DNA of 47,095 bases from a candidate division WWE3 bacterium (GTDB taxonomy: Bacteria > Patescibacteriota > WWE3 > 2-01-FULL-39-13). The notes under the pieces were generated by a model that saw only the letters and a list, made by a program, of their open reading frames with translations, searched no databases and was not told the DNA's origin. Within the stretch, counting starts at the first letter, position 1. Each line of letters starts with the position of its first letter. The stretch lies in the NCBI GenBank assembly GCA_943354835.1, contig CALRDH010000005.1, positions 1 to 47,095 of the forward strand, given 5' to 3'. Below, one piece after another: positions 13,694-41,931 of this stretch. The position numbers and the translations under genes were made by a program.

Positions 13694-13724
13694 AATCTCT
13701 AATTTCAGTATATCATAGAGATTA
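13693..13724. promoter_or_regulatory. 9-bp inverted repeat TAATCTCTA-N14-TAGAGATTA enclosing a minus-strand TG-A-TATACT extended -10 in the divergent pilB/holB gap
   Basis: Arms at 13693-13701 and 13716-13724; the spacer reverse-complements to TGATATACTGAAAT. Confidence 0.55.
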
Positions 13725-13727
13725 CTT

Positions 13728-17868: not shown

Positions 17869-18357
17869 ATGAAATTTAATAATGCCTTTACTCTTATTGA
17901 AGTTTTAATTGTTGTTGGAATTATGGGCATTTTAACTATGTCTGTCCTACCCGCTTTTGGTACTTTTGCAGACCGCCGTGCTTTTCAAAGTAGCGTTGAT
18001 ATTTTCGCAGAAAAAGTTAGATCAGCTAGAACCAAGGCGATGTCTGGTGTTGCGTCATCAGGCACTGATGTGAATTGGTATATTGAACCTACTTCGGGAG
18101 GAACGGGTTTTGTAATTGGTCATACTACAGTTTCTGGTGGAATTTCTACTGCGGTTTTTAATGACAGTCTTTCTGGTTATGGTGTTACTTTTGGAAGTTG
18201 TTCTCCGTGTAGAATTACATTTCAGCGTCTAACTGGAAAAAGACTGTCTGGAAACTCTGATGATCCACAAACTATTTTATTAAATTTTTCAAAAAGTGGT
18301 GAAAGCTTGACTAAAAGTATTAATGTTTACGATAGTGGCAAAATTGAAGTCCAATGA
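17869..18357 (+). CDS. Minor pilin (FimT/GspH-like)
   Basis: NA|FTLIEVLIVVGI, VRSARTKAMSG, terminal SGKIE. Confidence 0.8.
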   Translation: MKFNNAFTLIEVLIVVGIMGILTMSVLPAFGTFADRRAFQSSVDIFAEKVRSARTKAMSGVASSGTDVNWYIEPTSGGTGFVIGHTTVSGGISTAVFNDSLSGYGVTFGSCSPCRITFQRLTGKRLSGNSDDPQTILLNFSKSGESLTKSINVYDSGKIEVQ

Positions 18358-18821
18358 AATTTAATTTATATAAAAATTTAAAAGGCGAAACTCTAATTGA
18401 AGTTGTATTGGCTGTTGGTCTTGCAGTTATGGTTCTTTTTGCTTTGGTCGTCTTGGGGTCTACAGCAGTTAAAACAGGGACAAGTTCGTCAAGACGCGCA
18501 GAAGCTGAAAAGCTTGCATCTTCGGGTGTCGAGGCCATTAGGTACAAGCGTGATGCAAGTGGTTTTGACAGCTTGACGAATGGATGCTATCAGATAAACG
18601 GAAGTGATGTTCAGGCGACTGCGGATTGCGTCAATAATGCTTGGGTTACTATATCTTTAGGTACAGGAAATTTTTTTGATCGAAAAATCGAAATTTCTTC
18701 ATATGCAGGAAGTGCCACAATGAAAAAAATCACATCAACCGCAAGATGGGTCGAAACTGGCGGAGCAGGATCAGGTGAAACAAAAAGTGTTGTAATTAGT
18801 ACTGTTTTATCAAAATGGTAA
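18354..18821 (+). CDS. Minor pilin (PilV-like)
   Basis: KG|ETLIEVVLAVGL, AEKLASSGVEAIR; position in the minor-pilin order. Confidence 0.78.
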   Translation: MKFNLYKNLKGETLIEVVLAVGLAVMVLFALVVLGSTAVKTGTSSSRRAEAEKLASSGVEAIRYKRDASGFDSLTNGCYQINGSDVQATADCVNNAWVTISLGTGNFFDRKIEISSYAGSATMKKITSTARWVETGGAGSGETKSVVISTVLSKW

Positions 18822-19393
18822 AGCTAAACGGCATGAAGCCTTCATTTACATTAATCGAACTCATGATTTCAATTGGAGTTTTGGCAGTGGCATTATCAAT
18901 TACTGCAGGCGTTTTACTTTCCGTAATAAAAGCAACTCAAAAGCAAAAAGTGATCGCAGAAGTTGAAAGAAATGGCAGTTTTGTAATGAGTTATATACAG
19001 GAATCAGCGATGAAAGCACTGTCTATTAATTGTCAAAATAGTGGTGCTTCATCTACTTGCTCCGGGGGCGCTAGTGATGACGAACTTATTTTAGGTCAAG
19101 GATCGACTTCTTTATATGTTGGTTCAAGGGGTAATACTTTCAATTGTACTGGCGGTGCTAGTGTTACAAATAATTTTGTATACGCGACGTCCGATTCTTC
19201 TACTCCAGACAATCCAGAAAAGCTTACGAATGACAGTGAAAATGGCGTCCACATAGCAAGTTTAGCTTTTGTGGTTTCACCTGGAAATCCTGCTCGACTT
19301 ACTGTTACAATGGATGTAGAAAGTTCGAAATGTGGCGGTTGGAATGTGTCAAAGCGGTTCCAGAGTTTTATTACAGTTCGCGGAATATATTAA
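18815..19393 (+). CDS. Minor pilin (PilW-like); alternative start at 18833
   Basis: PS|FTLIELMISIGV hydrophobic helix; position in the minor-pilin order. Confidence 0.78.
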   Translation: MVKLNGMKPSFTLIELMISIGVLAVALSITAGVLLSVIKATQKQKVIAEVERNGSFVMSYIQESAMKALSINCQNSGASSTCSGGASDDELILGQGSTSLYVGSRGNTFNCTGGASVTNNFVYATSDSSTPDNPEKLTNDSENGVHIASLAFVVSPGNPARLTVTMDVESSKCGGWNVSKRFQSFITVRGIY

Positions 19394-19396
19394 AAA

Positions 19397-20221
19397 ATGG
19401 TAACAAAACATAAATCAGGTCAAGCAGCATTAATTATAGTTATCGTTACAATGGTTACAGCACTTGGCGTTGCTGTTTCAAGTATTACTCAATCAAATTT
19501 GAATCTTAAAGAAACTGTTTATTCGACGCAGGCAACGCAAGCAAAAGCATGTGCGGAAGCTGGCGCTGAAAGAGCCTTGGCATTTTTAGCACCAGATCCC
19601 ACTTTGACTGGTGTGACAACACCTCCAATTGTTACTCAGGCATCTACCGATGATCCTGCTTATGCAATAGATGGCTGTACTTATACAACCACGATTAGGG
19701 ATTATCCATGTACTGGCGGTACTCCTTCTTCTCCTTCGTGTAATGGTCAGGTTTATATTGCAAGCATTGCCGAAAATGCAGTGCAAGAAATTAAGGTTAA
19801 AGACGGCAGTATCGATATTACATTTACATATGGTAATTTAGATGAATCTTCTTTAGCCGTTTATTTGTATAAGTCTTCCCCATCAGCTTCGGTTGATAGA
19901 AAGATGTATCACTGTGGATCCCAAAGTAGTCCAAGTGGTGATTTTGATACCGCTTCTAAAGACACAAATACAGGTAAATGTACTATCTCTGGTTTACCGA
20001 CAACTGGTGTTACCTTGGTTAGGTTAAGACCACTTTATACAAGTATGTCTATAAATGTTTCTGGTACTGGAGTCGCAGGAACGAAGTCAGGTTATTTGGT
20101 TGAAACGAAAGGTTCTGCAGGTTCAGTTACTAGAAGTGTTAATGTTTATAGGTTTTTAAGTCAGTTGCCAGCAGCTTTTGATGAAGCTGTTGTTTCTTTG
20201 GGTAGCGCAGAGTTAAATTAG
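19397..20221 (+). CDS. Minor pilin (PilX-like, no Glu5)
   Basis: SG|QAALIIVIVTMVTALGVAV, QAKACAEAGAERAL, typical PilX N-terminus. Confidence 0.8.
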   Translation: MVTKHKSGQAALIIVIVTMVTALGVAVSSITQSNLNLKETVYSTQATQAKACAEAGAERALAFLAPDPTLTGVTTPPIVTQASTDDPAYAIDGCTYTTTIRDYPCTGGTPSSPSCNGQVYIASIAENAVQEIKVKDGSIDITFTYGNLDESSLAVYLYKSSPSASVDRKMYHCGSQSSPSGDFDTASKDTNTGKCTISGLPTTGVTLVRLRPLYTSMSINVSGTGVAGTKSGYLVETKGSAGSVTRSVNVYRFLSQLPAAFDEAVVSLGSAELN

Positions 20222-20243: not shown

Positions 20244-20786
20244 ATGACAGACAAAGTAAAAGCCATAACGATATTCAGTGCCTTCTTGTTGATTGCGGGA
20301 GCAGTTGTTTATTTCGGAATTATAAGAGGAGCTAATTTAATACCTACTCCTTCTGAAGATAACAAAGCTGAAGTAGATCCAAATGTTCCAACAAAGGAAT
20401 TCTTAGAAAGTGCTACGAAAAAAACATATGACGAGTTAAAGCAGGAATCTCCAAACATTGTGAATGCTCCAAATATTTATGATCCTGAAACGAAGGCTAA
20501 ATTTGAGGAAATCGCAAAAAGCCAAAATCCAGAAAACTACTTTGTTGTATTTGATGGAAAAAGTTTTGATCCAGAAAGCATGACAATATTTCAAGGAGAT
20601 CTAGTTACGTGGAGAAATAAAGGTGTATCTGATCTAAAAGTAAAAGGTGCTGGCGATTGGGGAAGCCTAATTCCTATCGAAACGGATCAGGCATTCTCTC
20701 AACAATTCGACTACCTAGGAACATACAAATACACAGCCGAAGCAAACGACAAAATAACCGGCGAAGTAATAGTAGTGGCGAGATAA
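20244..20786 (+). CDS. Membrane-anchored cupredoxin-fold protein lacking copper ligands
   Basis: N-terminal TM helix; FDPESMTIFQGDLVTWRN...FSQQFDYLGTYKY...GEVIV follows the plastocyanin-like pattern. Confidence 0.65.
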   Translation: MTDKVKAITIFSAFLLIAGAVVYFGIIRGANLIPTPSEDNKAEVDPNVPTKEFLESATKKTYDELKQESPNIVNAPNIYDPETKAKFEEIAKSQNPENYFVVFDGKSFDPESMTIFQGDLVTWRNKGVSDLKVKGAGDWGSLIPIETDQAFSQQFDYLGTYKYTAEANDKITGEVIVVAR

Positions 20787-20825: not shown

Positions 20826-23800
20826 GTGATAAAGTACAACAATAAAAGTTTAATAGTTTTTCTAAAATTATTTTTATGTTGTGTATTGTTTTTTCTTTTT
20901 TCTGCAAGTGTTACTGCAATTCGTGGATTTTGGTTCGTAACGAAAATATATGCTGCGGATGCATGCGGAGCAAGATGTGCTACAACTTCTTGTACCGGTT
21001 GTAGTGGTAAGTCTGTAACAGTTACGCGTTGTGGAACCACAAACTGTTGGGATAGTGCGGGACATTGTGTTCCTCCACAATCTACAGGGGTTTCATGTAG
21101 TTGTAATAATGGTGTTTTCACAGCTGACTTTCAGTACGCTTGTGCAGCTGGCCAGGGTCAACCACCAGCTTCCGATACCACTGCTCCTACTTGCCAAACG
21201 CCTACTGTTTCGCCTGGTTCGCCACTTAGTGCTGGCTCAATAGATATCAGCGGAACAGGTAGTGATAATGTAGGTATTGCAAGAACAGGCGTATATATTT
21301 ATCAGGGAAGCAATTGGATTGCGACTGTGCGTGATAATAGTAAAGCTAATACTAGTTCCCCACTTAATGTAAGTTGGGCGACGAATGTTCCTGATGGAAC
21401 CTATCAGGTTCATATGAATTGGTATGATGCCGCGAATAATGGTCCGACTCAATGTAGTACGAGCTTTGTTATCGATAAAACTCAACCTTCGTGCGGGGCT
21501 TTTTCTTTTTCTCCAGGAAGTCCTTCTAATGCTAATTCTGTTTATGTTAGTTCTTCAGCAACTGATAATCTAAGCCTGTGGAGGTCAGCTTTATATGTTA
21601 GTAAAAATTCAAATGCAACTCCAGGGAATTGGCAAGCTATTATTCCTCCTTATAAATCATATAATTCAGGAACGACAAGTGGATTTGTTGATGGCACAGT
21701 TAATTTTTCGACTTTTGGAAATGGAACTTATATATTTGCGTCAAATTGGTGGGATACTGCTGGAAATGCCTATAAGCAATGTACATATAATTATACAATC
21801 AACAAAACTCCACCGACTGCGACTCTTTCAGGTGCAACGCAGGTTTGTCTTAATACATCACAGACTTATTCCCTGTCCGCGAGTGCTGTAAATGGGATGA
21901 AACTAGCTTATTTTACATATTATAGGCCTGCTCCGACTAATAGTTGGAAAACGGATCCTTTCCCGCTATATACAACTGGTAATTTATCGGGAAATTCATA
22001 TTCTGGTTCAGCTTCTATAACGTTTAGTACAGCAAATGGTTTTTCTGCTGGAAATAGTTATTATGTTGCATCTGGTGCTGAAGATGATTTGGGTAATAAA
22101 TGTAATGGAAGTCAGCTATTATTTCCAACGGCACCAGCAGCCGGTACTATAGTTTCTGGTTTTTATTACTGCGGGAATTCTTCAAGACAAACGGTAACAA
22201 TTATCGACAAACCAGCCGCAAGCGTTGTTGCTCCTAATTTAAGACAGGTATATAACAGCCTGGATGCAAATTGGACAATACGTTTAAGGTGGGATCAATT
22301 ATCTGGTGATACTGCATCTATGTATAGTGTCACGCAGCCAGCAAATAGCCAATCGTGGAGTACTTTATCATGCAGTGGAACCTATTGTCAGCAAACTTTC
22401 CAAATATCTGGTGGTTGTTCTGCAGAATATACATATTCGGTTGTTAAAACAGATTCTTGTGGTGCCAGTACACCAAAAAGTATAACTGTTTCTCCTAATT
22501 GTTATCCTAGTTGTAGTTTAGGTACAACTTCGAGCCTTCCTGCTAATCCGTCTTCTGCCTTGACAATAAACTCTACAAATAGTCCGGGGGTAAATGATAC
22601 TGGAGATAGTATCTCTAGCTATAATTGGTACGTTGACGGCCAATCAGTAACAGGAACTTTAAATTCCTATAACTACAGCGCTTCTAGTAGTTATGGTAAA
22701 ACACAAACTATAATACAAGTTGTAAGTGACACTTTTGGCTCTTCAAATTCTAAAAGCTGTTCATTAGCGGTTAGTACAGTAGAACCAACAATTTCGGTTG
22801 GCCCTGTTTCAAGCGTAAGTTTTTCTAGAAATTCACAATATGCATATTCAGCATGGGGTGTGGCCGTATCCTCAACGGTATTAAATGATAATCCTGGAAC
22901 TTTAACATATAATCAGTCTGATAACATAACATATGGTGCTTCTTCCTATCAAAATATATGTAAAGCGCCTGGTGTAACTTGCTCGTTTAATTCGACATCA
23001 TTTGTGGCATCAAAATCAATAGCAGGTAGTAATGTATCGACGTGGCTAAATATTAGAGTTCCCAGAGCTTTAACCCCTGGTACATATGCGTATGGACTAG
23101 ACCTGTCTTCGACTAAGTGGGATAATACTGCTATTTCAAGCCAAAGTAATAATTTATTTGTTGTGCGAAATTTTCTTCCACTTTGTGGGAGACCTGTATT
23201 AAGTGAATATTCAACATATAGCTCGGTTGGATATCCTTTGAATTATAGTATCACTGCATCTGCTACTTCCGTATCAGATCTAGACGGAACAATTGTTTCT
23301 TATACTTGGGACGCTCCAAGTGTTGGGGATATTGCCATAGCAGATAGATCTTTAAATCCAACGAACTATATTACTTCATCTAGCTACAATACAACTACTG
23401 CAATTGCATATACAGTAACTGATTCAAGCGGTGGTACTAAAAAATGTACATCTGAGGCAATTAAAACAATTATACAACCTGGCGTTAGTGCTTCTTGGGC
23501 TAATTATGCTATAGATACAAACCAAAATATTACAGATAGCAAAACTATTACAATTACAGAAACGCCTACAGAAGCAGGCTTTACTGTGAATATGGATTTA
23601 GCAATTGATACTAGTTCAAATCAGTTTTATATTAATAGCACAACAGTAAACAATATTTGTAAAGTCACAGACGTCACATGTGAATTCTTAGGAAGCGGAC
23701 TAAGTGTAAACGACAATGTAACATCAACCGCAGGTTCTACATCAAAAGATTACACAGTAAAAATTACAGTGCCACAAAGTATCCCTGTTAGGAATTATGG

Positions 23801-26800
23801 AATCAGGATTGGTGGAACAACGACGTATTTAGGAGAGACACTTACTGTTAATAGTGGAAAAACTGTTTTTATTACAGCCGCACCTTCAACAATTACAGTT
23901 CAGTGCGCAGATGGTTCTACAACCTCACCATGTCCTACAACTTATTCAAGCAATCGAGGTTGGGTTTCTGATGCTATTGCATTCAACATTGTTTCAAGTA
24001 GATTTAACGGAAATTTTAGTGTTACCGAAGATGTAACTTCTGCCTGTGGCGATACGGGAGTTACATGTACTTTTAGTACAACAGCCGCTGGAACATATAC
24101 AGATAGCTTAACAAACCAATCACTTGCGACAGATGCAACCAATATAATTTATATGAAAATTGCCACAACAAATCTATCTGTGCCAAAAGCATATTTAGCA
24201 AAATTTACAGTTGTTGGTACAAGAAATAATGTAAATACATCAACTGGAAATCAATCAAGTCCGGGGACCAGCTTTACACTTGGTAATCAAAATCCGATAT
24301 GTGGAACACAAACATTTACGTATAGTCCTGCTTCGCCAATCGCAAAAGGTGGAACAACAACATTAACAGTTGGAGGTGGAAGCGATCCGGATTCTGATCC
24401 AGTTACTTATGGTGCTTGGGCTACTTCATCTGGCACAATTACTGCTGCCTCAACTAATTCGGCAACAGTTACCGCGGTAAACACCTTTAATTCTTGTGCA
24501 AATATAAGCTATAAGGTTTATGATAACCAAACTCCACAAGGAGTTTCAGTTGCTACCTGTGCTGTTGCCGGAGCTTTATGCACTATCAAAGATAATGTAA
24601 GGCCAACAGCGACAATTACTACTGCCGCCAGTGCTGTGTGTAAAGGTGATAATTATCCGGTTGCTTTTTCATATGCTGATGCAGATAGCAATTTAACTTA
24701 CGTCTCTATCAAGAAGTCTGCTCCAGTTAGTGTAATTGCTGAAAAAACAGGTAGTTTTGGAACCTCAACTACACTTTCTGGGTCAACCACTTTTGCAACT
24801 GCTGGTACATACACGGTTTATCCAACTGCAACTGATGCTTTAGGAAATTCTTGCGACAGTAGCGGAACAAATACTTGCGGTGCTGGAACATCAAAAACAG
24901 TTATTGTAAATGAAAATGCAGACTCCCCTGTTTTGTCGTATGTTGTCGATCCTTTAAGTGAATCAAAAGTTACAATAAAATGGACAAAACCTGCAGGTTT
25001 GTCTGCTTCAAGTTATGCTTTGACAGGAGCTTCTGGAACCATTGGCACAATTACTTGTGGTGGTACTTCTGGTAATGATTGTTATGCAGATGTAGATACA
25101 GGAGCTAATTCATGTACAAATAATTATGTACTTGAGCTTCAGGAAGTCGATTCAAATAATTGTGTTGCAATTTCATCAATTACAATTTCACCAAACTGTT
25201 TCCCAACATGCACAAAACCGGTCCTTGGAGATTATGCTACGTATTCAGCTGCTGGATATCCACTTAGTCACACGATGTCTGTTACAGGGTCGGGGTCAGA
25301 TAATGACGGAACAATTAGTGAATATACATGGGGTGCAACAAGTTCTCCAGGTGTTGGAACGTTAACGCAGGTAAATGATCCAGTATCAAGTTATGTTACT
25401 GCAAGTGATTACGACGCTTCAACTACGATTACATATAGTGTTGAAGATTCAAGTGGTGCAGTAACAGTTTGCCCAGTTTCAGATTCCTTCAAAACACAAT
25501 TAAGACCAGGTGCTGATACCGGTTGGTTTAATTATTCAATTGACATAAATAAAACATTATCGAATGTGCAGAATTTCACGGTTACTGAATCGGCAACTGA
25601 TGAAGGCTTCACAATGAATTCAAAGTTTGACATTGTAACTTCTGGCCAGTATACAAGCGGAACAACGCCAAATATTTGCAATATATCTGGTGTTAAATGT
25701 GAGCTTTCTGCTGGAGTTGTTGGTTTTGACGAGACATATGCAACAACCGCAAGTAGTACAGCAAAAACATACGCAATCACGGTTACGGTTCCAAATAATA
25801 TAGCTGCAGGTACATACGGAATTAAAATTTCAGGAGGCACGACGTACCGTGGACTTGTATTGACAGATATTACTAATGAGAAAGCGGTTATTATTTCAGC
25901 AAGTATTTCAGATATATCAATAATTTGTCCATCAAATAGTTCATGTGCTTCATTTACTTCCCAAAATCGAGGTTGGGTATCTGGAGCTATTTTATATAGA
26001 GTTGTTTCTATGGGTTTTGCTGGAACATTTAGCATTTCGCCTGATTCTTCTAGTATGTGTGGAGTTAGCGGTGCGACATGTACATTCAGTACAGATGGTA
26101 CTACTTTTTCATCTACACTAACTTCAGTTGCTCTTACCGCAAATCAAACAAAGGACGTTTATATGCAAGTAACGACCACAAATGCAATTCCTCCTAATAA
26201 TTATGGTGCAAGATTTATTGCAAATGGAACAAGATCGGTAGTTGGGTCATCAACTGGAAATAAAACTAGCTCAAATACAGCAATTACAATGTTAAATCAA
26301 GCGCCTGTGTGCGCACCTATTGGTGCTAATAACTATAATCCGGCAAGTCCTGTGCCTTTGAGACAAAATGTAACTATTACTGCATCTGGCGGAACCGATC
26401 CGGATTCCGATTCACTTACCTACTCTGTTTGGTCAACAAGTGGAACTGCAATTTCTCCAGTTTCTGGATCAACCAATTCTGCAAGAGTTACTATGCCAAA
26501 TACATACAACACTTGCTATGAAATTAGATACCGAGTTACGGATCAGTATGGTGCAGTTTCTGCTTTGCCTGTTTGTGTCGTTCCAACTACGCTTTGTACA
26601 ATTGTAGACAGCGTTCCACCACAAGCATCGATTACAACAGGTGCTGATTCAGTATGTAAAGGAATTTCATATCCAGTTGCATTTAGTTATACGGATAATG
26701 ACGTTTTGACAGACGTTTCTATAATGAAAAAAAGTCCGGTAGCGACTGTTGCTACAAAGACAGATTTATTTCCGGCTTCTACAACACTTTCAGGTTCAAC

Positions 26801-29800
26801 AACCTTTGATACAGCCGGAACTTCATATGTTTATGCAACAGCGAAAGATAAGAATAATAATACATGTGATAGTAGTGTTACAACAACTTCATGTGGAACG
26901 GGGACACTAAAGGCTATTACCGTAAATGAAAATGCAGATTCCCCTGCAATGTCTTTTGTTACAGATGCTTCTAATCCTTCGAAAGTTAGAGTAACTTGGA
27001 CAAAACCATCTACTTTAGGAACATCTAATTATGTATTTACAAGAGCAAGTGGAACTGCCGGAACATTGAGCCCAATTACATGTTCAGGTAATTCCTGTGG
27101 AGTTGATATTACTGGTCTTGATTGTACTGCGTCATATTCATATAACTTGCAAGAAACAGATGCAAATACATGCAAAGCTTTGTCGACAATTACTGGAGTT
27201 TCTCCGAACTGCGCGCCTACATGTTCTACACCTACTATCGCAAATGCGGTTAGCGTATATCCTTTGAATACAAGTCAAACTATAAATAGTACAAAATCTG
27301 GAACAAATTTTGACTCTGAAGATCTTGATGCCGTAGGACATATTTGGGTTCCTTCCTTAAGCGGAACAGGACTTGGTGGAATAATTGCAGCTATAGGTGG
27401 AATAGCAACTTATACAACTCCAAATAGAAATAATATTACGGTTCAGATTGCTCATTCTGTAAAAGATTCTGGCGGTCCAAATGATAATAATTTTGTTACT
27501 GTTTCATGTGGAGCAGTTTCTTTCCCAATGGCGGCAGATACTCTAAGTACACCAGTTTTTTCACCTGGAAGTATCACGATTGCAAGAACTACGGATAATC
27601 CAACAGGTTCGTCAAACTTCACCTACTCTCTTGCTAATTTCCAAAATGGAACTTTTGCTATCGATACAACGAATACAAATAATGCATCATTTATCGGAAA
27701 TAATATATGTGCTCTAACTTCTTTGGTAACATGTTCTGCTAGTACGACTGCTCCAGTTGGAAATAATCAATCGATACCACTTACTATCACGTTTAATAAT
27801 AATGCTCGTGTAAACTTTAATACTGCAATTACAGGTGGATATAAAGTTCTTGGGAAGATAACTTATGCAACAACAAATGCTTCAAATGTAGTCGTAAATA
27901 AAACGGCACAGGCTTATTACAGCGTAACCATTGGAGATACGGCTCCAACATGTACAGTTTATTCAAGATTAAAATCAACGGATGCGTGGGCCGATGTTAC
28001 AGGAAAATATTTTACTTACGGGCAAAGTACAAAGGTTCAAGTTAGAACAGTTGGTAGCGATTCCGACGGCGATACAATTGGATCGTATTTGTGGTCTGCG
28101 TCTGCTGGAACAATCACACCAACAAATACACAAGAATCTGAATATACGGTTTATGCGGTTGATGGATTAAACGCAACCATTACCGGACGTGTGAATGAAA
28201 GTGCTCCAAATACTTTGTATGGAACTTGTTCGACGGTTATGAAAACACCAGATCCAGGAACTCACACAATTGCGGCCGGAAGTTTGAATGGTAATGATAC
28301 TTCAGAAACAGTTGCCTATTCCTATTCCGGATATGTAAATGCTAACAATGGAATTGGAGTTAATGGTACATCAACAATCTCAAGTGGTGCAATTGCTGGA
28401 TATATAAATTTATGTACGGTTTCTGGAGTCACATGTAATTTCGAAAACAAATCCGTTGGCGCTGGTTTAACTATTGGTAGTGGATCGACTGGTTCTACAA
28501 ATATTATAGTTACTCTTTCAGGACCAAGGCCAAGGATTGATAATACAAAAGTATATGCAATAAAGGTAACCTTTTCCGCTCCAACTGCTGATGGCGGATC
28601 TATAACAGCATCAACAACTGGTGGAATTATTGCGATTACTGATGCCTCGCCAACTTGTGGGAATATTTCGATGTCTCCGGCAGATAATGTTTTATCTGGA
28701 AGTTCGGGGGCTTTGACTATAACTGCCCTTGGATTTGATGATTGGACTATGTCTTCAGCGAAACTTGAATATAACTCTGACATTACTGGTACAAATGCTG
28801 GAACGTGGACGACAATTGGAACAGTTTCTTCTTTTGCTAGCGTCATTTCACCTTCCGCTGTATTTTCCTGGGTTCCAGGGTCTTTAGCTTTAGGCCGATA
28901 TCAATTGCGAGTTACGTGGACAGATAACAAGTCTCCAACAGGAAATACTGTTTTTTGTAGTGCTTTAAATTCATCTATAATTACAACGAATCCTGCGAGT
29001 CCAACAGATCCAAATAATGCAGTTGTGACTGTTAACGGAAATAGATTCTCTGGAAGAGTTTTAATACAAAGCGATGGGCCATCGAATTCTGTTATCTATA
29101 AAACTGTAAGTAAGGATGCTCTTTCAAATTCATTTGTTGTTACAAGTAATTTAGGAGCAACATCTTGGAGTAATTTAACAGTAGGTCCATCCGGAAATCC
29201 TGCCGATTGTGTGTCTAGTTATCCTGATGGTGCCCCCGATTCAAATAATTGTAATAATGATTTCTTTGTTTCCAATACGACGCATTTAGTTGGAACTAGC
29301 TTAACTGCTTCGGTAGCAAATCCTTCAAGTAAATATGCGTGTACATATGATGTTTGGGGTTTAGATGCAAGTGGTGTTAGGGTGAAGAAAATTGCAAATG
29401 GATTTGGTTGCACGACTTCACCTTTTAGTCTTGAAACTGGTCTTTCTTCATATTCTGCAACCACAAGGTGGACAACCGAAGTTGATTTTTACCTTACATA
29501 TAATACAGATCAGGTTAGAGGGTTTGTTTATACTAATAATGGCTCTAATGCTAGTGACCCATTACTTGGACTTTCAGGATATACAATATCTGCCTCTGGG
29601 TATGTTTCTGGCAGTTCTTTAGCTAATGGCAGTTTTGCTTCTCCAGATAGCACTGATTCCGCAAATTACCTGCCTACTGGTGATAGAGCTTTTACAATTA
29701 CGGGGCCAAATATAGGATCTAGCGCTTCATCAAAGAAATGTTTTTATGCTTTTAGAAATGATGGAGTAAACGGTTCGTTTTTGTATCAAGATATAAAAAA

Positions 29801-31163
29801 TATTGGACGAGTTGGATCAGTCCCTGGTTGGACTACCGGCGAAGGATGCACAACGCAAGCATTATCTATTGCTCATGGAAATCTTTCCCCGCAGTTACAG
29901 AATTATTTGTATTTTTTTGTTGTCCCGAAAATTACAGTCGATCCGACTTCGAGTATTGCCTTTGTTGTTGATTGTTCGTCTGGTGTGGCAAGTGCAGAAA
30001 CACTTGAAATTATACCAACAGTTGATTTGTATGACCCATCAGTCGCTTCTACTAATAGAATAGGTGAAGAATTGTATAACGCCACGGGGTTTTCTATAGT
30101 AAATCCGAGTAGCTCTGATCCGACTGAACTTAAGTGGAATCAAACTTATCAAGCCAATTTGCTTTCAAATGTTAATTTTACAGTATGTAATAATTTGTCT
30201 CCAAGTTTTACTGTTGGAACCGCAAGTACAGAACCTAATGTGAATTCGACGCTTGCAAGTTATCCATCGGTGACATCAGCAGATAACCAAGTTAAATTTA
30301 CTTTCAGTATTACGCGTAAAAATAATAATGACTGGTGGCAGGTTTATAATGGTGGAGCACATGCAAATGGATTTATGAATTTGGATCGATTGCCTCACGT
30401 ATTTGTTGATCCAAATGTTGTTAAAGCTCCTGTAGTTGGTAAGTTGATAAATGCTTTAGCAACTCAAATTGCTCCTGAAGTTTTATATGTTCCTGATTTG
30501 AGCTTATATTATTATGTACCAGCTTTGGTTTCTTCTTTTTATTCAGAAGATATTAATTTTAATGATGGCAAAGCAGGAATTTCTCCAAAGATTTGGTCTG
30601 CAAATCAAATGAAGAATGCGATGCCTGTACCTTATGACGATAAGTTTTTTGCGGATGTAACAGGACAAGGATCAGCTTGGGTTTTAAAAACTAATATTGC
30701 AAGTGCATTTAGTTCGTCAAATTCTGATGCTGTTTATGTCAATAGTTCTCAGACGCACGATAATTCAAGTAATACGAACAAACACGCCAGGCCAATAGTT
30801 ATAAACGGAGATTTTACTGTTCAAAGTGATTTACTATTACAGAATTCATCCTCCGGTCCATTAATTATTATCGTTCATGGCAATGTCATTATCGATTATT
30901 CTGTTGCGACTATTCAAGCGACTATTTATGCGACGGGCACTATTTCGATACCAACAAAAGGCGATCAAACTGATCCTATTTTAAATGTTACTGGAAGTTT
31001 GATCGCCGATCAATTTGATTTTAAAAGAGACTTAGCAAATATACTAACTAATGTTGGCGTACCTTCTCAAAAAATAAATTTCGATGCAAAGGTAATTAGT
31101 GGAACTAGTGCTTATCCTATTAGTATGAAACAAGCTAATGCATATTGGGTCGTTACAGATTAA
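20826..31163 (+). CDS. Giant (3445 aa) secreted Cys/Thr/Ser-rich Ig/PKD-repeat surface protein; putative pilus-associated adhesin
   Basis: Signal-like N-terminus, Cys-rich tip, DNVG/DGTY Ig-like motifs, repeated DxD(G/S)xxxxYxW motifs, no C-terminal TM or sortase motif; follows the PilX-like gene. Confidence 0.85.
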   Translation: MIKYNNKSLIVFLKLFLCCVLFFLFSASVTAIRGFWFVTKIYAADACGARCATTSCTGCSGKSVTVTRCGTTNCWDSAGHCVPPQSTGVSCSCNNGVFTADFQYACAAGQGQPPASDTTAPTCQTPTVSPGSPLSAGSIDISGTGSDNVGIARTGVYIYQGSNWIATVRDNSKANTSSPLNVSWATNVPDGTYQVHMNWYDAANNGPTQCSTSFVIDKTQPSCGAFSFSPGSPSNANSVYVSSSATDNLSLWRSALYVSKNSNATPGNWQAIIPPYKSYNSGTTSGFVDGTVNFSTFGNGTYIFASNWWDTAGNAYKQCTYNYTINKTPPTATLSGATQVCLNTSQTYSLSASAVNGMKLAYFTYYRPAPTNSWKTDPFPLYTTGNLSGNSYSGSASITFSTANGFSAGNSYYVASGAEDDLGNKCNGSQLLFPTAPAAGTIVSGFYYCGNSSRQTVTIIDKPAASVVAPNLRQVYNSLDANWTIRLRWDQLSGDTASMYSVTQPANSQSWSTLSCSGTYCQQTFQISGGCSAEYTYSVVKTDSCGASTPKSITVSPNCYPSCSLGTTSSLPANPSSALTINSTNSPGVNDTGDSISSYNWYVDGQSVTGTLNSYNYSASSSYGKTQTIIQVVSDTFGSSNSKSCSLAVSTVEPTISVGPVSSVSFSRNSQYAYSAWGVAVSSTVLNDNPGTLTYNQSDNITYGASSYQNICKAPGVTCSFNSTSFVASKSIAGSNVSTWLNIRVPRALTPGTYAYGLDLSSTKWDNTAISSQSNNLFVVRNFLPLCGRPVLSEYSTYSSVGYPLNYSITASATSVSDLDGTIVSYTWDAPSVGDIAIADRSLNPTNYITSSSYNTTTAIAYTVTDSSGGTKKCTSEAIKTIIQPGVSASWANYAIDTNQNITDSKTITITETPTEAGFTVNMDLAIDTSSNQFYINSTTVNNICKVTDVTCEFLGSGLSVNDNVTSTAGSTSKDYTVKITVPQSIPVRNYGIRIGGTTTYLGETLTVNSGKTVFITAAPSTITVQCADGSTTSPCPTTYSSNRGWVSDAIAFNIVSSRFNGNFSVTEDVTSACGDTGVTCTFSTTAAGTYTDSLTNQSLATDATNIIYMKIATTNLSVPKAYLAKFTVVGTRNNVNTSTGNQSSPGTSFTLGNQNPICGTQTFTYSPASPIAKGGTTTLTVGGGSDPDSDPVTYGAWATSSGTITAASTNSATVTAVNTFNSCANISYKVYDNQTPQGVSVATCAVAGALCTIKDNVRPTATITTAASAVCKGDNYPVAFSYADADSNLTYVSIKKSAPVSVIAEKTGSFGTSTTLSGSTTFATAGTYTVYPTATDALGNSCDSSGTNTCGAGTSKTVIVNENADSPVLSYVVDPLSESKVTIKWTKPAGLSASSYALTGASGTIGTITCGGTSGNDCYADVDTGANSCTNNYVLELQEVDSNNCVAISSITISPNCFPTCTKPVLGDYATYSAAGYPLSHTMSVTGSGSDNDGTISEYTWGATSSPGVGTLTQVNDPVSSYVTASDYDASTTITYSVEDSSGAVTVCPVSDSFKTQLRPGADTGWFNYSIDINKTLSNVQNFTVTESATDEGFTMNSKFDIVTSGQYTSGTTPNICNISGVKCELSAGVVGFDETYATTASSTAKTYAITVTVPNNIAAGTYGIKISGGTTYRGLVLTDITNEKAVIISASISDISIICPSNSSCASFTSQNRGWVSGAILYRVVSMGFAGTFSISPDSSSMCGVSGATCTFSTDGTTFSSTLTSVALTANQTKDVYMQVTTTNAIPPNNYGARFIANGTRSVVGSSTGNKTSSNTAITMLNQAPVCAPIGANNYNPASPVPLRQNVTITASGGTDPDSDSLTYSVWSTSGTAISPVSGSTNSARVTMPNTYNTCYEIRYRVTDQYGAVSALPVCVVPTTLCTIVDSVPPQASITTGADSVCKGISYPVAFSYTDNDVLTDVSIMKKSPVATVATKTDLFPASTTLSGSTTFDTAGTSYVYATAKDKNNNTCDSSVTTTSCGTGTLKAITVNENADSPAMSFVTDASNPSKVRVTWTKPSTLGTSNYVFTRASGTAGTLSPITCSGNSCGVDITGLDCTASYSYNLQETDANTCKALSTITGVSPNCAPTCSTPTIANAVSVYPLNTSQTINSTKSGTNFDSEDLDAVGHIWVPSLSGTGLGGIIAAIGGIATYTTPNRNNITVQIAHSVKDSGGPNDNNFVTVSCGAVSFPMAADTLSTPVFSPGSITIARTTDNPTGSSNFTYSLANFQNGTFAIDTTNTNNASFIGNNICALTSLVTCSASTTAPVGNNQSIPLTITFNNNARVNFNTAITGGYKVLGKITYATTNASNVVVNKTAQAYYSVTIGDTAPTCTVYSRLKSTDAWADVTGKYFTYGQSTKVQVRTVGSDSDGDTIGSYLWSASAGTITPTNTQESEYTVYAVDGLNATITGRVNESAPNTLYGTCSTVMKTPDPGTHTIAAGSLNGNDTSETVAYSYSGYVNANNGIGVNGTSTISSGAIAGYINLCTVSGVTCNFENKSVGAGLTIGSGSTGSTNIIVTLSGPRPRIDNTKVYAIKVTFSAPTADGGSITASTTGGIIAITDASPTCGNISMSPADNVLSGSSGALTITALGFDDWTMSSAKLEYNSDITGTNAGTWTTIGTVSSFASVISPSAVFSWVPGSLALGRYQLRVTWTDNKSPTGNTVFCSALNSSIITTNPASPTDPNNAVVTVNGNRFSGRVLIQSDGPSNSVIYKTVSKDALSNSFVVTSNLGATSWSNLTVGPSGNPADCVSSYPDGAPDSNNCNNDFFVSNTTHLVGTSLTASVANPSSKYACTYDVWGLDASGVRVKKIANGFGCTTSPFSLETGLSSYSATTRWTTEVDFYLTYNTDQVRGFVYTNNGSNASDPLLGLSGYTISASGYVSGSSLANGSFASPDSTDSANYLPTGDRAFTITGPNIGSSASSKKCFYAFRNDGVNGSFLYQDIKNIGRVGSVPGWTTGEGCTTQALSIAHGNLSPQLQNYLYFFVVPKITVDPTSSIAFVVDCSSGVASAETLEIIPTVDLYDPSVASTNRIGEELYNATGFSIVNPSSSDPTELKWNQTYQANLLSNVNFTVCNNLSPSFTVGTASTEPNVNSTLASYPSVTSADNQVKFTFSITRKNNNDWWQVYNGGAHANGFMNLDRLPHVFVDPNVVKAPVVGKLINALATQIAPEVLYVPDLSLYYYVPALVSSFYSEDINFNDGKAGISPKIWSANQMKNAMPVPYDDKFFADVTGQGSAWVLKTNIASAFSSSNSDAVYVNSSQTHDNSSNTNKHARPIVINGDFTVQSDLLLQNSSSGPLIIIVHGNVIIDYSVATIQATIYATGTISIPTKGDQTDPILNVTGSLIADQFDFKRDLANILTNVGVPSQKINFDAKVISGTSAYPISMKQANAYWVVTD
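23180..27220 (+). repeat. Two diverged tandem copies (about 672-675 aa each) of a multi-domain block inside the giant gene
   Basis: C..PVL.(E/D)Y.TYS..GYPL at 23184 and 25209; NENADSP at 24909 and 26925; NRGWVS.AI and GG.DPDSD..TY each occur twice. Confidence 0.9.
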
Positions 31164-31172
31164 TATTAAAAT

Positions 31173-32699
31173 ATGAAAATTCTGCCAAAAGTTTTCCTTA
31201 TATCCTTTTTTATCTTTGCCACTTCCCTATTTTTCAAAGTTGGAATTGTATCGGCTGGATGTAATGCGCTAGGATGTACGGCCGATGGTGATTGTGATAG
31301 CGGTGGAAACCTTTGTGGAAGTGATCCTGGAAGTTGTGCAAATAATTGTTCACAAGCCTGTACTGATCCGAGTGATCCAACAAAAAAAATTCCTGGTACT
31401 GCGTCTATAACTGGAACAAGTTGTAATGTTTGTGATTATGACATTAGTTGTAGTAGTTGTTCTTGTGGAGGTGGAGGTAGCGGTGGAGGTGGTGGATCAA
31501 ACATGAATGGTGTAGTTAATGATTCCGTTTCAGGAAACAGATGGGTTGAAACAACTTTAAGTTGTAATCAGTCTTATACAGGTGTTGTTGTAAAAGGTGT
31601 AGATAAATTGGGAAATGAAATTGCGCAAGGTGATTTTACATGCAATTTAGAATGTCAGAATTGTGATGGAGCTGGGCATTTTGATATGGCTGGAGTTGTC
31701 AATGCTAATACCGAGGTATTCCTTACTTTAACAATCCCAGCATCAATAAGCTATGATTGTGCTTCCGTTACATGGAGCATAACAGACAGAGTTGATTTAT
31801 CGATAGGATCCGATGATGTAATTATAAATACCGGAGTTGGGTGTATGGCTAGCTTTATGAGCGATGTTAATCCTTACAATTGGAGGTATGGTGCTCTGTT
31901 TACAATGAATGCTCAACCGATAGACAATAATCCTCCAACAAAGCCTGGAACGCCTGTGGTTCCAGCATGTCTTGCAATTGGAGGTTCTTCGGCAAATATT
32001 ACTTTTACTGGTTCAACCGATTCTGGATCTGGTATGAGTCATTATATTGTAAATATCGATGAAGGTAATAATGGTAGTGTTGATACCTCTGATCGTCTAA
32101 ATTTTCCTTCAACGTCGTATTCATATTCCTTTAGCGATAGTAAAACATATCGAATTTGGATTGATGCTTTTGATATGCTTGGAAATAAAAACTGGTCAGA
32201 TGAATTGATTTATAATCCAAAAACATTACCACCTGCCCCGACAACTGTTAGGGCAACAGACGGTTTAGATTCAAAGATAGATATAAGTTGGAATGATAAT
32301 TCTAATTTCACATACAATACAGAAGATCGTTTTGATGTAATAAGAGGTGGCGTAGTAATCCATCCGATTCCAACAAGTAATGTGACACGTAATGCGACAA
32401 GCTATTCAGACACAGGAGCCGTGTGTGATGGTAATAATCGTGACTACTATGTTAAGGCCGTAAATTCATGCGGAGAAAGCTTAGGAGGTCCAAATGCAGG
32501 ATATTGTACTAGCCCTTCAGCGAACAGTTGGTGGCAAGTTTTTAATGGAGGCGTTCATTCAAATGGTGCAATAGATATTGATGATATTCCTGCTACTGAA
32601 TCCGTAATTGGTGATGGGTTAACTATTTCGACGTATAACGGCTATGGACTTATGTCTAGCAGGTCTAGCATTGGTATAACATCTGGAATGCAGGTATAA
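31173..32699 (+). CDS. Secreted Cys-rich/Ig/FN3 protein; N-terminal part of a frameshift-split gene
   Basis: Signal peptide, Cys-rich N-terminus, GGGGSGGGGGS linker, FN3 motif (PPAPTTVRAT...ISWND...YYVKAVN..GES), WWQVFNGGVHSNG. Confidence 0.8.
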   Translation: MKILPKVFLISFFIFATSLFFKVGIVSAGCNALGCTADGDCDSGGNLCGSDPGSCANNCSQACTDPSDPTKKIPGTASITGTSCNVCDYDISCSSCSCGGGGSGGGGGSNMNGVVNDSVSGNRWVETTLSCNQSYTGVVVKGVDKLGNEIAQGDFTCNLECQNCDGAGHFDMAGVVNANTEVFLTLTIPASISYDCASVTWSITDRVDLSIGSDDVIINTGVGCMASFMSDVNPYNWRYGALFTMNAQPIDNNPPTKPGTPVVPACLAIGGSSANITFTGSTDSGSGMSHYIVNIDEGNNGSVDTSDRLNFPSTSYSYSFSDSKTYRIWIDAFDMLGNKNWSDELIYNPKTLPPAPTTVRATDGLDSKIDISWNDNSNFTYNTEDRFDVIRGGVVIHPIPTSNVTRNATSYSDTGAVCDGNNRDYYVKAVNSCGESLGGPNAGYCTSPSANSWWQVFNGGVHSNGAIDIDDIPATESVIGDGLTISTYNGYGLMSSRSSIGITSGMQV

Positions 32700-32701
32700 C
32701 A
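32673..32701 (+). repeat. 9-bp direct repeat GGTATAACA x2, 20 nt apart, at the frameshift junction
   Basis: Copies at 32673-32681 and 32693-32701. Confidence 0.9.
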
Positions 32702-32737
32702 GATCATGATTATTTTGCTCAATATAATAATCTTGAT

Positions 32738-33301
32738 ATGGTAAATCCCGCAAATGCGACTACATTCAACAGAATTAAAGCATTGGGTTCATCTTGGACT
32801 GGAAAACTTCAATCTTCAATTTCATTTATGGGGAGTGATCCAACAAATACTTATTATGAGAGTATCTCTTCGGCAAATGTAAATTCAGTAATCACTTATA
32901 ATTCAAACAAGGTCGTTGCGGTTATTTTTCAACCTTCGTCAAATACTTTGTCTTTTAGGAAAAATATAGTTGATAATTCTGCAGGTCAAGATAAATTTAT
33001 GGTTATTTTTGTTGATGGAAATGTTTCAATAGATAGCACGGTTGATAGGATTGACGCTTTTATTATTGCTTCTGGAACTATTACTGTTGAATCGGCTGGA
33101 CTTGATCTTGATGATCCAATTTTAATTAAGGGCGGTTTGTATGCTAATCAGATATTATTAAATCGTGATTTAAAAAATGTAGTTACGAATAATGATAAGC
33201 CTGCGGAATATATTTCATATAATGAAAATCTTATATTAAACCAACAAGATGTACCTTTTGAGATTAAAGAGTCCCCTATTCAATGGGTTTTTGATGAATG
33301 A
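32738..33301 (+). CDS. C-terminal part of the split gene (frame open from 32669); homologous to the C-terminus of the giant protein
   Basis: VIFVDGNVSID...GGLYANQILLNRDL...QWVFDE versus IIVHGNVIID...GSLIADQFDFKRDL...YWVVTD. Confidence 0.8.
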   Translation: MVNPANATTFNRIKALGSSWTGKLQSSISFMGSDPTNTYYESISSANVNSVITYNSNKVVAVIFQPSSNTLSFRKNIVDNSAGQDKFMVIFVDGNVSIDSTVDRIDAFIIASGTITVESAGLDLDDPILIKGGLYANQILLNRDLKNVVTNNDKPAEYISYNENLILNQQDVPFEIKESPIQWVFDE

Positions 33302-33302
33302 T

Positions 33303-33686
33303 TTATTTAGGTTCGAGGGCAGATAATATTTCTTGTTTTATTTGATCCGGCATTAAAGAATCTTTTATTAAATATCCATCCGCACCAAGTTCGAATGCTT
33401 CTTTTATCACTTTTTCCCTTGATAGAACTGTCATCATAAATATTTTTATATTCTTATTTTTTGGATATGATCTAAGTTCCTTAAGGACTTTTATTCCGTC
33501 TATCTTTGGAATCATAAGATCTAAAAGTATAAGATCTATATCCTTGTTGTCTTTTACGAGATCAATTGCTTCTTGGCCGTCTTTTGCCTGAAGTATTTCG
33601 AAACCTTCCATACTTAGGTATTCAGAATAGACTAGTCTTAGAGAATTTTCGTCTTCGACTATCAAGATTTTATACTTCTTATTCAC
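33303..33686 (-). CDS. Stand-alone response regulator receiver (CheY-like)
   Basis: ILIVEDE, LILLDLMIP (phospho-acceptor Asp), MT, ADGYLIK; no output domain. Confidence 0.93.
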   Translation of the reverse strand: MNKKYKILIVEDENSLRLVYSEYLSMEGFEILQAKDGQEAIDLVKDNKDIDLILLDLMIPKIDGIKVLKELRSYPKNKNIKIFMMTVLSREKVIKEAFELGADGYLIKDSLMPDQIKQEILSALEPK

Positions 33687-34851
33687 TATAAGTCAGGCTA
33701 ACAGAATTCTTTGGAATTGTAAACCAAAAAGTGCTTCCTTTGCCAAGTTCAGATGTAAACCCAATTTTTCCGCCAAGTTCTTCGATTATTCTTTTTGATA
33801 TATAAAGTCCAAGTCCTGTACTCGCACCTAATACTTGTTGTTTAAGCCCGGCATTTCCTCTTCCAAATTTTTGAAATAATCTTGGGTAATCTTTTTTAGC
33901 AATTCCTGGACCTGTATCTGATACTGATAATTTTATTTCTTTTCGTGTTGATGAAACCCAAATCTTTATGTGCCCACGCTTAGTGTATTTGATGCTGTTA
34001 CTTATTAAATTATCGAGTATTTCAATAATTTTATCTCTATCTGTGAAGACTTCCTTTATTCTTGTTTTAGAAAATATTAGCTTTAACTTTTTCTTTTTGA
34101 GTAATTCTTTATAGCTTGTTGTTACTTCTTCGATTAACTGATTTATGTCTACTTTCTTTTTTTCAATTACTAGTCTTCCCTGCTCGACTCGTGAAATATC
34201 TAATAAATTACTGACTATTTTGGAAAGTCTTTTAATGCCTTCGTCTGTTTCCCAAAGTAAACGTTTTTGACTTTCATTTAATTCTGCTTTTAATGTATGC
34301 TCAAACATCCATAAATTTGTTTTTATTATTGTTACAGGAGTTTTTAGCTCATGTGAAGCAATTGAAATGAATTCGTCTTTTTCTTTGTCAAGTTCAATTT
34401 CGTCTGTAATATCAGAAAGTGAAATTACACATTCTTTTACTTCAGAGTTTATAAGTATGTTATTAAAATTTAATTTGTAGTAAGAATCTTCATCGGCTTC
34501 TCTTTTGACAATAATTGGATCTCCCAGGTCTTTTTTTACTTTATCTTTTTTTACAAACGCATAATCTTTTACTTTAATTGATTGTGAGTTTTTGTGCGAA
34601 ATCAAGTTTATAATATCATCCGCGTGTCTGCCAATTGCATTTTCTTTACTTATATTAAAAGCAATTTCTGCACTTGAATTAAAAACAACAATTTTGAATT
34701 TTTGATCTATTGAAAAAACAATTTCAGCAACTTGAAACAAAACTTCTTGTATCCTTTTTCGTTCTTTATTCAGCTCAAGATTATTGATATAAAGCTCTTG
34801 GGCAATTTGCTTTAATAGCTGATTTGAATCTGGGTTTACTGTAGCTTCCAT
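33679..34851 (-). CDS. Cytoplasmic PAS-domain histidine kinase
   Basis: PAS (IVVFNSSAE), H-box ASHELKTP, NLISNSIKYT, DTGPGI, STGLGL; no TM segment. Confidence 0.93.
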   Translation of the reverse strand: MEATVNPDSNQLLKQIAQELYINNLELNKERKRIQEVLFQVAEIVFSIDQKFKIVVFNSSAEIAFNISKENAIGRHADDIINLISHKNSQSIKVKDYAFVKKDKVKKDLGDPIIVKREADEDSYYKLNFNNILINSEVKECVISLSDITDEIELDKEKDEFISIASHELKTPVTIIKTNLWMFEHTLKAELNESQKRLLWETDEGIKRLSKIVSNLLDISRVEQGRLVIEKKKVDINQLIEEVTTSYKELLKKKKLKLIFSKTRIKEVFTDRDKIIEILDNLISNSIKYTKRGHIKIWVSSTRKEIKLSVSDTGPGIAKKDYPRLFQKFGRGNAGLKQQVLGASTGLGLYISKRIIEELGGKIGFTSELGKGSTFWFTIPKNSVSLTYSE

Positions 34852-35970: not shown

Positions 35971-35998
35971 ATTATACATGCGAAATATGTTCAAGCAA
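35971..35998 (-). promoter_or_regulatory. Sigma70-like promoter TTGCTT-N16-TATAAT, 7 nt upstream of ATG 35963
   Basis: Read directly from the minus strand. Confidence 0.5.
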
Positions 35999-36007
35999 AA
36001 GACAATC

Positions 36008-36036
36008 TTTACTATAGGGCTACCTAATGATAAACT
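36008..36036 (+). promoter_or_regulatory. Candidate promoter TTTACT-N17-TAAACT (with extended TG), 7 nt upstream of the in-frame GTG at 36044
   Basis: Read directly from the sequence; divergent from the signalling operon promoter. Confidence 0.4.
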
Positions 36037-36043
36037 TATAAAA

Positions 36044-36958: not shown

Positions 36959-36959
36959 A

Positions 36960-38965: not shown

Positions 38966-38975
38966 GTTTGAAACC

Positions 38976-39800: not shown

Positions 39801-39820
39801 TTATTTAATTATTTAAAAAC

Positions 39821-40450: not shown

Positions 40451-40463
40451 TTCAGTCTTCATA

Positions 40464-41868: not shown

Positions 41869-41931
41869 GTTCTTCACCTCCTAGCATAATTTTGCCAAAT
41901 CCAATATAATCGTTTTTAGTTAAACTTGCCC

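Follow-up and report, generated by a model that had tools for sequence, protein, structure and literature searches.

A secreted solenoid-tail domain family at the PilY1 position of type IV pilus loci in Patescibacteria

The window analyzed here, a stretch of 47,095 nucleotides from a candidate division WWE3 bacterium of the Patescibacteria, or candidate phyla radiation (CPR), spans a type IV pilus (T4P) region. The genome is very small, with 884 kb in 8 contigs, an estimated completeness of 100%, and a G+C content of 31 to 39%. Two genes of the window, one for a giant protein of 3445 amino acids (aa) and one for a split protein of ~700 aa, share a C-terminal domain of ~280 aa that marks an unnamed family of Patescibacteria proteins, secreted through Sec and distinct from pilins. 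The founding member has its gene between that of a PilX-like minor pilin and pilM. This is the PilY1 position, and in the window it is occupied by two paralogs with divergent putative docking domains. We lean, with slightly better than even confidence, toward a reading in which the domain would dock variable adhesins on the minor-pilin tip complex, the binding to minor pilins, the location at the tip, and the adhesin role all being predictions.

A family of secreted non-pilin proteins at the PilY1 position

The three open reading frames (ORFs) concerned lie where the original prediction had placed them (Table 1), and the C-terminal domain it had proposed as common to both proteins is real. The distal parts of the two copies align by BLASTP with 31% identity over 185 aa (E = 1e-18; aa ~3275 to 3445 of the giant protein against the 187-aa ORF), and the proximal motif, WWQVYNGGAHANG / WWQVFNGGVHSNG, or WWQV(Y/F)NGG(A/V)H(A/S)NG, gives a separate alignment of 57% identity over 23 aa (E = 5e-7). 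Positions 30333 and 32529 mark the first W of WWQV in the respective copies, each of the four motifs that had been quoted for the domain was found, and both proteins have W as the fifth residue from their C-terminus. The copies represent distinct subtypes that are kept apart in a sister genome, with 56% and ~57% identity within the subtypes and ~30% between them. Since the subtypes are distinct, a long and a short adhesin on one adaptor would be plausible, yet their contact sites may differ.

No Pfam or NCBIfam family matches the shared domain above its cut-off, a sequence-profile search of the PDB with the domain returned nothing even at E <= 10, and no description of such a protein from Patescibacteria turned up in our literature search. 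The family, defined here by alignments A2 and A3, is referred to as the "pre-pilM" solenoid-tail family. Its motifs are V.FV.GDL.I, LVFIV.GNV.I, ID.A.IIA.G.I, L.V.GSL.A, F.R.L, and PAE.I.Y.P.Y, with a W near the end, and the A2 profile assigns both window copies to it (copy 1, E = 1.4e-89; copy 2, E = 2.7e-43). Searching 1.84 billion cluster representatives with the profile, we retrieved 319 proteins at E <= 1e-3, and in all 150 matches listed the domain is C-terminal in its host. The hosts range from 94 to 3445 aa and include giant repeat proteins, a very regular group of ~630 to 690 aa with an OmpL47-type barrel (E = 2.4e-10) or a Big_13 domain, and stand-alone secreted proteins of ~260 aa. 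This spread of lengths and N-terminal contents fits a shared attachment module that carries interchangeable heads, as had been put forward for the two window proteins.

A hydrophobic signal-type N-terminus is found in all 26 complete domain ORFs examined, and neither a prepilin motif nor an internal transmembrane (TM) segment occurs in any of the 31 locus-encoded members. A prepilin motif is likewise missing from all 149 cluster representatives searched, and a pilin origin of the domain was rejected, as no member carries such a motif. The sole hydrophobic segment of the window proteins is N-terminal and LPxT[GAS] is not present in them, so that they have neither a TM anchor nor a sortase motif, as had been predicted.

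Two subfamilies have conserved N-terminal features of their own. In the stand-alone ~260-aa proteins (six representatives), the signal peptide is followed by a GL(I/V)S.P...C(I/V)...FAPYKIP.Y..LKS.Y segment and the solenoid-tail domain. The ~640-aa members encoded in pilus operons (12 loci) have a mature N-terminus of (D/E)(S/T)TPP(V/A/T)T followed by G.NGW(Y/F); this start, which neither window protein has, gives the founding subfamily a second conserved feature.

How constant is the genomic position of the domain genes? We surveyed 114 genomes of the class that were at least 85% complete and 401 genomes sampled evenly across the phylum. The domain is present in 98 of the 114 class genomes and PilM in 111. 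Among the 143 domain matches within the class, 74 lie on the contig that carries pilM, 54 within 20 kb of it, and 21 within ~1 kb directly upstream, these being synteny counts that take no account of phylogeny. The domain was found in 114 of the 401 genomes sampled across the phylum, and of the 44 domain-bearing genomes among them that belong to other classes, at least 18 have a domain gene that shares the strand of pilM and lies <1.1 kb upstream of it, with three more having one within 16 kb. By chance, a random gene would be expected as the immediate upstream neighbor of pilM about once in 900.

The recurring order in 20 fetched loci is pilB-pilT-pilC-pilA-pilD, prepilin genes, PilV-, PilW-, and PilX-like genes, the gene for the domain protein (~630 to 660 aa), and pilM-pilN-pilO. 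In five relatives belonging to family f1, domain genes, often two tandem paralogs, are preceded by homologs of the window's PilX-like and cupredoxin-like genes or adjoin the same response regulator/histidine kinase pair as in the window and pilMNO. The gene order beside the minor pilins, in the window and in 15 other loci, places the domain protein in the position of the PilY1 class. The co-occurrence and adjacency that the original prediction had expected from a profile search are borne out: the domain is strongly tied to T4P operons at the PilY1 position across classes, and the link between domain and pilus, in this class and in others, is strongly supported. The counter-finding it had envisaged, a domain occurring mostly outside pilus loci, is seen in part, in that there are many such copies, and the tie to pilus operons is still strong. 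As for the neighborhood in the window, the PilY1 position stands, but the giant ORF does not lie strictly directly after the PilX-like gene, since a gene for a 180-aa protein lies between them; the PilV-, PilW-, and PilX-like labels themselves were assigned from gene position, N_methyl motifs, and NCBIfam matches that are weak (Table 1).

Predicted fold and known pilus-tip systems

An AlphaFold2 (AF2) model of the domain from a 26-sequence alignment has a confident core, with per-residue confidence (pLDDT) of 80 to 96 over residues 110 to 275, and a disordered linker, and a model from a 73-sequence core alignment (mean pLDDT 87.2, predicted TM score [pTM] 0.84) forms a beta-solenoid with about five rungs and, after it, a tail. 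The tail is modeled at pLDDT 58 to 69 in the last three 10-residue blocks. A W occurs within the last nine residues of 53 of the 73 homologs, and W, F, or Y in 69 of them, so that the tail combines conserved positions with a low-confidence model, as a segment that binds a partner would be expected to do. V, G, G, and R are near-invariant, and P and W are among the other well-conserved positions, a pattern that looks structural rather than catalytic. Reading the domain as an enzyme of the lyase- or hydrolase-type beta-helix kind was rejected, as no acidic or catalytic residues are conserved.

The claim that the proteins have neither a vWA domain nor a PilY1 propeller also stood: hmmscan found no vWA and no PF05567 (T4P_PilY1) match at E <= 0.1 in the three window ORFs, nor PF05567 in the isolated domain. 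A six-frame search of 41 related genomes likewise found no PF05567, the control genomes giving no match either. With a solenoid model and no PF05567, the C-terminal domain is a real, conserved, and unnamed module, not a propeller of the PilY1/PilC type. Foldseek searches of the PDB with both models placed ComZ of Thermus thermophilus (6qvi; probability 0.97, match not significant) at the top and DUF3494 ice-binding solenoids next, which would make a triangular solenoid of the ice-binding type a candidate fold, and a search of viral structures (BFVD) was uninformative.

DUF7305 (PF23981) was considered as a family for the domain. It matches the solenoid rungs of 5 of 26 members below threshold (best E = 6.5e-5); at its cut-off of 27 bits none of 31 genomes scores above, the best value being 24.2 bits in a relative and the window genome having none. 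Membership was rejected because the matches are sub-threshold and the window copies have no match at all. DUF7305 does not tie the domain to ComZ or PilX, since the Thermus and Synechococcus control genomes are also without a match, and no mention of it was found in the literature searched.

In the Pseudomonas and Myxococcus systems, PilY1 combines an N-terminal part that varies with a C-terminal domain that is conserved and seated on the minor pilins. The family resembles PilY1/PilC of Pseudomonas, Neisseria, and Myxococcus in being non-pilin, in carrying a Sec signal, in being encoded after PilV/W/X-type minor pilin genes, and in joining a variable adhesin-like N-terminus to a conserved C-terminus. 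It differs in that this C-terminus is a short beta-solenoid with a tail and not a PF05567 propeller, in that vWA is absent, in that hosts reach 3445 aa, and in that an outer-membrane secretin is missing from the organism. A further candidate for the PilY1 role was not detected in these genomes. The search for the propeller was negative, and the family is therefore no member of PilY1/PilC.

A beta-solenoid has been proposed as the pilus cap in lineages without PilY1, namely in ComZ (PMC6561018) and cyanobacterial PilX (PMC13759059), and the ComZ solenoid is itself most similar to ice-binding proteins (PMC6561018). As in ComZ and PilX, the solenoid described here belongs to a protein encoded within a minor-pilin cluster. 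Unlike ComZ and PilX, whose solenoid is enclosed in a GspK-like pilin fold that has a pilin helix at its N-terminus, the family has no pilin part, and the PilX/GspK-like protein is encoded by a separate gene just upstream; its solenoid is also much shorter (~150 aa versus ~380 aa). Since a prepilin motif is found in none of the 31 locus ORFs or 149 representatives, the family does not belong to the ComZ/PilX pilins. PilB and PilC of Streptococcus sanguinis and PilX1 and PilX2 of Nanosynbacter lyticus TM7x likewise equip a pilus with a bulky adhesive module (PMC8179133, PMC11623550), but these modules are fused covalently to a pilin helix, whereas the carrier domain of the window is not a pilin and would dock noncovalently. 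Sortase- or TM-anchored adhesins of the Gram-positive type differ from the window proteins, which have no LPxT[GAS] or hydrophobic anchor. By these comparisons the family is probably closest to PilY1 in its working and to the ComZ solenoid in its fold, and DUF7305 and sortase-anchored adhesins may be set aside.

A proposed docking role and its alternatives

How might such a protein reach and hold its place? The domain protein would be exported by Sec and lose its signal peptide, its solenoid and tail would bind the PilV/W/X-like minor-pilin priming complex noncovalently, and pilus extension would carry it outward. The variable N-terminal part, in the window a Cys-rich head followed by long beta-sandwich-type repeats, would then act as the adhesin. 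Noncovalent docking on the priming complex is proposed because architecture and position are PilY1-like and because solenoid caps have been proposed where PilY1 is lacking, and the PilY1 role would otherwise be unfilled, given that no PilY1 propeller was detected in the window proteins or in the 41 related genomes. It is the analogy with PilY1 and ComZ that would place the attachment at the tip and not at the base or in the envelope. A size limit of the ComZ type would not apply, and very long cargo would be allowed, because these cells have no outer-membrane secretin.

A more specific version of this reading is tentative, and we hold it to be rather less probable than not. The module may be a phylum-wide non-pilin substitute for PilY1 that docks noncovalently on the PilX/GspK-like minor pilin, possibly by adding its conserved tail strand to the pilin sheet. 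The ComZ-type architecture would then be split over two genes, and, with neither an outer membrane nor a secretin to restrict their size, interchangeable heads of any length, such as 700 or 3445 aa in the window, could serve as host-range determinants.

Nearly all Patescibacteria have type IV pili, and host attachment by these proteins, as originally proposed, is plausible for a CPR episymbiont. In Saccharibacteria, experiments have shown that T4P drive motility and binding to the host, and TM7x is an example of Patescibacteria using pilus-borne modules for host binding (PMC11623550). The conserved unnamed non-pilin protein at the PilY1 position is a concrete candidate for a host-recognition subunit, and profiles A2 and A3 provide a searchable marker for pilus-linked adhesins in thousands of uncultured genomes. 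Docking, if true, would be a third way to load cargo on a pilus tip, beside the PilY1 propeller and the in-pilin solenoid of ComZ/PilX, and would help to explain host-range diversification in ultra-small episymbionts through swapped heads on a fixed adaptor.

Several observations weigh against docking at the tip. Part of the conservation in gene order is due to shared descent, although the phylum evolves fast and the signal is still seen across its classes. In family f16 the ~650-aa ortholog lies beside cysS-recR-dnaX, 47 to 63 kb from pilM (five loci), although these genomes usually keep other, weaker-scoring domain genes 5 to 13 kb from pilM, and giant copies without pilus neighbors occur in three genomes. 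There are stand-alone ~260-aa secreted forms of the domain, and a natural fusion of the domain to a pilin, looked for among the 149 representatives, was not found, so that this argument for physical association is missing. Since the two window copies are only 31% identical, they may not share one partner, and to our knowledge a cargo of 3445 aa on a thin pilus would be unprecedented. Finally, the Foldseek matches to ComZ and DUF3494 are not significant (E = 0.03 to 0.06 or higher, TM score 0.23 to 0.41; for ComZ, E = 0.03 to 0.06 and TM score at most 0.40), a likeness of fold class that does not establish homology to ComZ.

What else could the domain do at this position? It might attach its protein to the base of the pilus machine or to the envelope, for example to the PilM/N/O alignment complex or to a conduit through wall and S-layer, with the ~640-aa member as a structural part of the trans-envelope apparatus in a cell that lacks an outer membrane and the giants as adhesins beside it. 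We consider this unlikely, though the most serious of the alternatives. The most constant neighbor of the domain gene is indeed pilM, at gaps of ~5 to 400 nt; some classes have the order domain gene, pilM, ..., pilB, response regulator, pilT, pilC without pilin genes between (five loci); and the ~640-aa members carry conserved, non-repetitive N-terminal domains (the OmpL47-type barrel and Big_13), not hypervariable heads. Where minor pilins are present, however, the domain gene follows the PilX-like gene just as consistently, a machine part is not expected to have radiated into proteins of 94 to 3445 aa that bear Cys-rich heads and repeat stalks, and the best fold match is, weakly, a tip protein. 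Somewhat less probable still is a general Patescibacteria surface anchor for cell wall or S-layer, one member of which would merely be co-transcribed with pilus genes. Such an anchor would account for the several paralogs per genome that lie far from pilM (three in tandem in one genome and two in another; eight loci), for the stand-alone ~260-aa forms, and for the invariably C-terminal place of the domain, as in many wall-anchoring modules. It is at odds with a domain gene that is the immediate upstream neighbor of pilM in at least 39 genomes of several classes, far above the chance of ~1 in 900 genes per genome, with the lack of similarity to known wall-binding modules in Pfam and NCBIfam, and with family f1, in which every copy found lies in the pilus region.

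The least probable alternative, and in our view an improbable one, is that the solenoid itself binds a ligand, as a DNA receptor like ComZ or as a glycan binder, the N-terminal regions being spacers or accessory binders. CPR bacteria depend on imported nucleotides, and the domain is the only part conserved family-wide. ComZ, which tops the fold matches, binds DNA (PMC6561018). But the fold match is not significant, and conservation points to near-invariant V, G, G, and R without a basic patch or catalytic set. The protected lysines of ComZ, K98 and K233, lie between its pilin-like and solenoid domains (PMC6561018), an interface that is impossible in a family without a pilin domain, and Cys-rich heads with long repeat stalks look outward-facing. 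Docking of adhesins on the minor-pilin tip complex is the explanation that we favor over attachment at the base, a general anchor, or ligand binding.

Layout of the window

Both window proteins have the Cys-rich N-termini that had been predicted (Table 1), and N-termini of a similar kind are found in the pilus-locus domain proteins of two other genomes, G025 and G014. The super-repeat region of the giant protein contains weak PKD and Big_9 matches; of the Ig/PKD/FN3 stalk that had been described, Pfam detects only sub-threshold matches (K319L-like PKD, 2.6e-4; Big_9, 2.9e-3; fn3, 5.8e-3).

As assembled, the shorter paralog appears to be inactivated by a -1 frameshift, in agreement with the ~700-aa split protein originally described. 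Its 5' part is 56% identical to an intact 727-aa ortholog in the same-genus genome G001, which aligns colinearly across the frameshift site with a 1-nt gap there. There is no homopolymer run at the site. A repeat-bracketed insertion of 20 nt as the cause of the frameshift was ruled out, since the G001 ortholog aligns with a gap of only 1 nt. The gene could be a true pseudogene, or the site could be phase-variable or misassembled.

Table 1. Features of the window, in order of position
Feature	Position	Strand	Basis and remarks
pilC, platform protein	9580-10788	-	Pfam T2SSF 1.4e-56
pilT, ATPase	10785-11867	-	Pfam T2SSE 2.8e-33
pilB, ATPase	11882-13759	-	Pfam T2SSE 3.4e-127 and MshEN
Prepilin (GspG/PilA-like), candidate major pilin	14454-14936	+	NCBIfam IV_pilin_GFxxxE 4.8e-4, GspG 2.8e-4; sequence RGLTLIE
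Prepilin peptidase PilD	15642-16430	+	Pfam A24_N_bact 1e-26, Peptidase_A24 3.6e-8
Four prepilin genes	16464-16901, 17024-17455, 17377-17865, 17869-18357	+	Pfam N_methyl 7e-9 to 7e-6; third also T2SSG / ComP_DUS
PilV-like minor pilin	18354-18821	+	NCBIfam type_IV_pilV 1.9e-3 (weak); sequence GETLIE; homologs kept in operons of other classes
PilW/GspI-like minor pilin	18815-19393	+	Pfam N_methyl 2.3e-4; weak GspI / ComGF / GspH matches (~1e-2)
PilX/GspK-like protein	19397-20221	+	N-terminal hydrophobic helix; NCBIfam T2SS_GspK 4.5e-3 on residues 10-67
180-aa protein, one TM segment and cupredoxin-like C-terminal domain	20244-20786	+	NCBIfam amicyanin 0.012 (weak)
Giant secreted protein, 3445 aa	20826-31163	+	ORF; composition rich in Ser, Thr, Asn, Gly
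Predicted Sec-type signal peptide of giant protein, aa 1 to ~43	20826-20954	+	Cleavage after SVTA or IYA; hydrophobic windows only at aa 6-25; no prepilin motif
Cys-rich N-terminal module of giant protein	20964-21194	+	Cys positions, 10 Cys in aa 47-123
~740-aa super-repeat of giant protein, two copies (aa ~802-1544, ~1477-2217)	23229-27476	+	Self-BLAST 36-55% identity, E 2e-37 to 3e-55
Shared C-terminal domain, copy 1	30333-31160	+	WWQ..GG motif, variable low-confidence linker, beta-solenoid, tail; A1/A2 profile E 1e-89 to 1e-217
Beta-solenoid core of copy 1, about five rungs	30732-31079	+	Contains IIIVHGNVIID, IQATIYATGTI, LNVTGSLIADQFDFKRDL, PSQKINFD; AF2 models and column conservation
C-terminal tail of copy 1, W at position -5	31080-31160	+	Low model confidence
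Second domain protein, 5' part, 508 aa	31173-32699	+	Signal peptide aa 1-28, Cys-rich aa 30-98 (12 Cys), Gly linker, FN3-like region; shared domain starts at 32529
-1 frame change splitting second gene	32685-32689	+	Frame A last homologous codon 32685-87, frame B first codon 32687-89, one base in common
Second domain protein, 3' part: solenoid and tail of copy 2	32687-33301	+	ATG-delimited ORF 32738-33301, 187 aa; profile match E 2e-86
Receiver-only response regulator; histidine kinase	33303-33686; 33679-34851	-	Pfam Response_reg 7e-25; HisKA and HATPase_c
pilM	41926-43068	+	Homologs in other classes match PilM_2 PF11104; phmmer links
pilN/pilO-like genes	43070-43648, 43632-44519	+	phmmer links

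The gene order in the window leads from the PilX-like gene through the 180-aa gene, the two domain genes, the response regulator/histidine kinase pair, and a seven-gene metabolic insert to pilM, which lies 8.6 kb downstream. The genome has only this one pilM and no domain copies other than the two in the window. The PilX/GspK-like protein has no prepilin cleavage motif, and its homologs are found directly upstream of domain genes in eight other loci. Since the domain gene abuts pilM in the canonical operons of other genomes, the block at 35978 to 41868 looks like a lineage-specific insertion.

A small redox-type accessory protein belongs to the Myxococcus minor-pilin/PilY1 cluster, and the 180-aa cupredoxin-like protein of the window recalls it. 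A homolog of its gene lies in the same place in another genome, G002. In G014 a small protein resembling it is encoded after the domain gene (positions 10438 to 10866 of locus L042). The response regulator/histidine kinase pair of the window flanks domain genes in five family f1 genomes as well (G001, G002, G004, G005, and G009), and a receiver gene lies between pilB and pilT in three loci of other classes.

The genes that part the adhesin and signaling genes from pilMNO (35978 to 41868, forward strand) include those for a DUF2156/LPG_synthase_C protein, a pyridoxal phosphate (PLP) decarboxylase, an EamA transporter, and a CYTH protein. At its left end (positions 430 to 2568, reverse strand), the window encodes an ATPase resembling coupling proteins of the TraG/VirD4 type (DUF87/HerA, TraG-D_C, TrwB), next to the genes for RNase HII and gyrA/gyrB.

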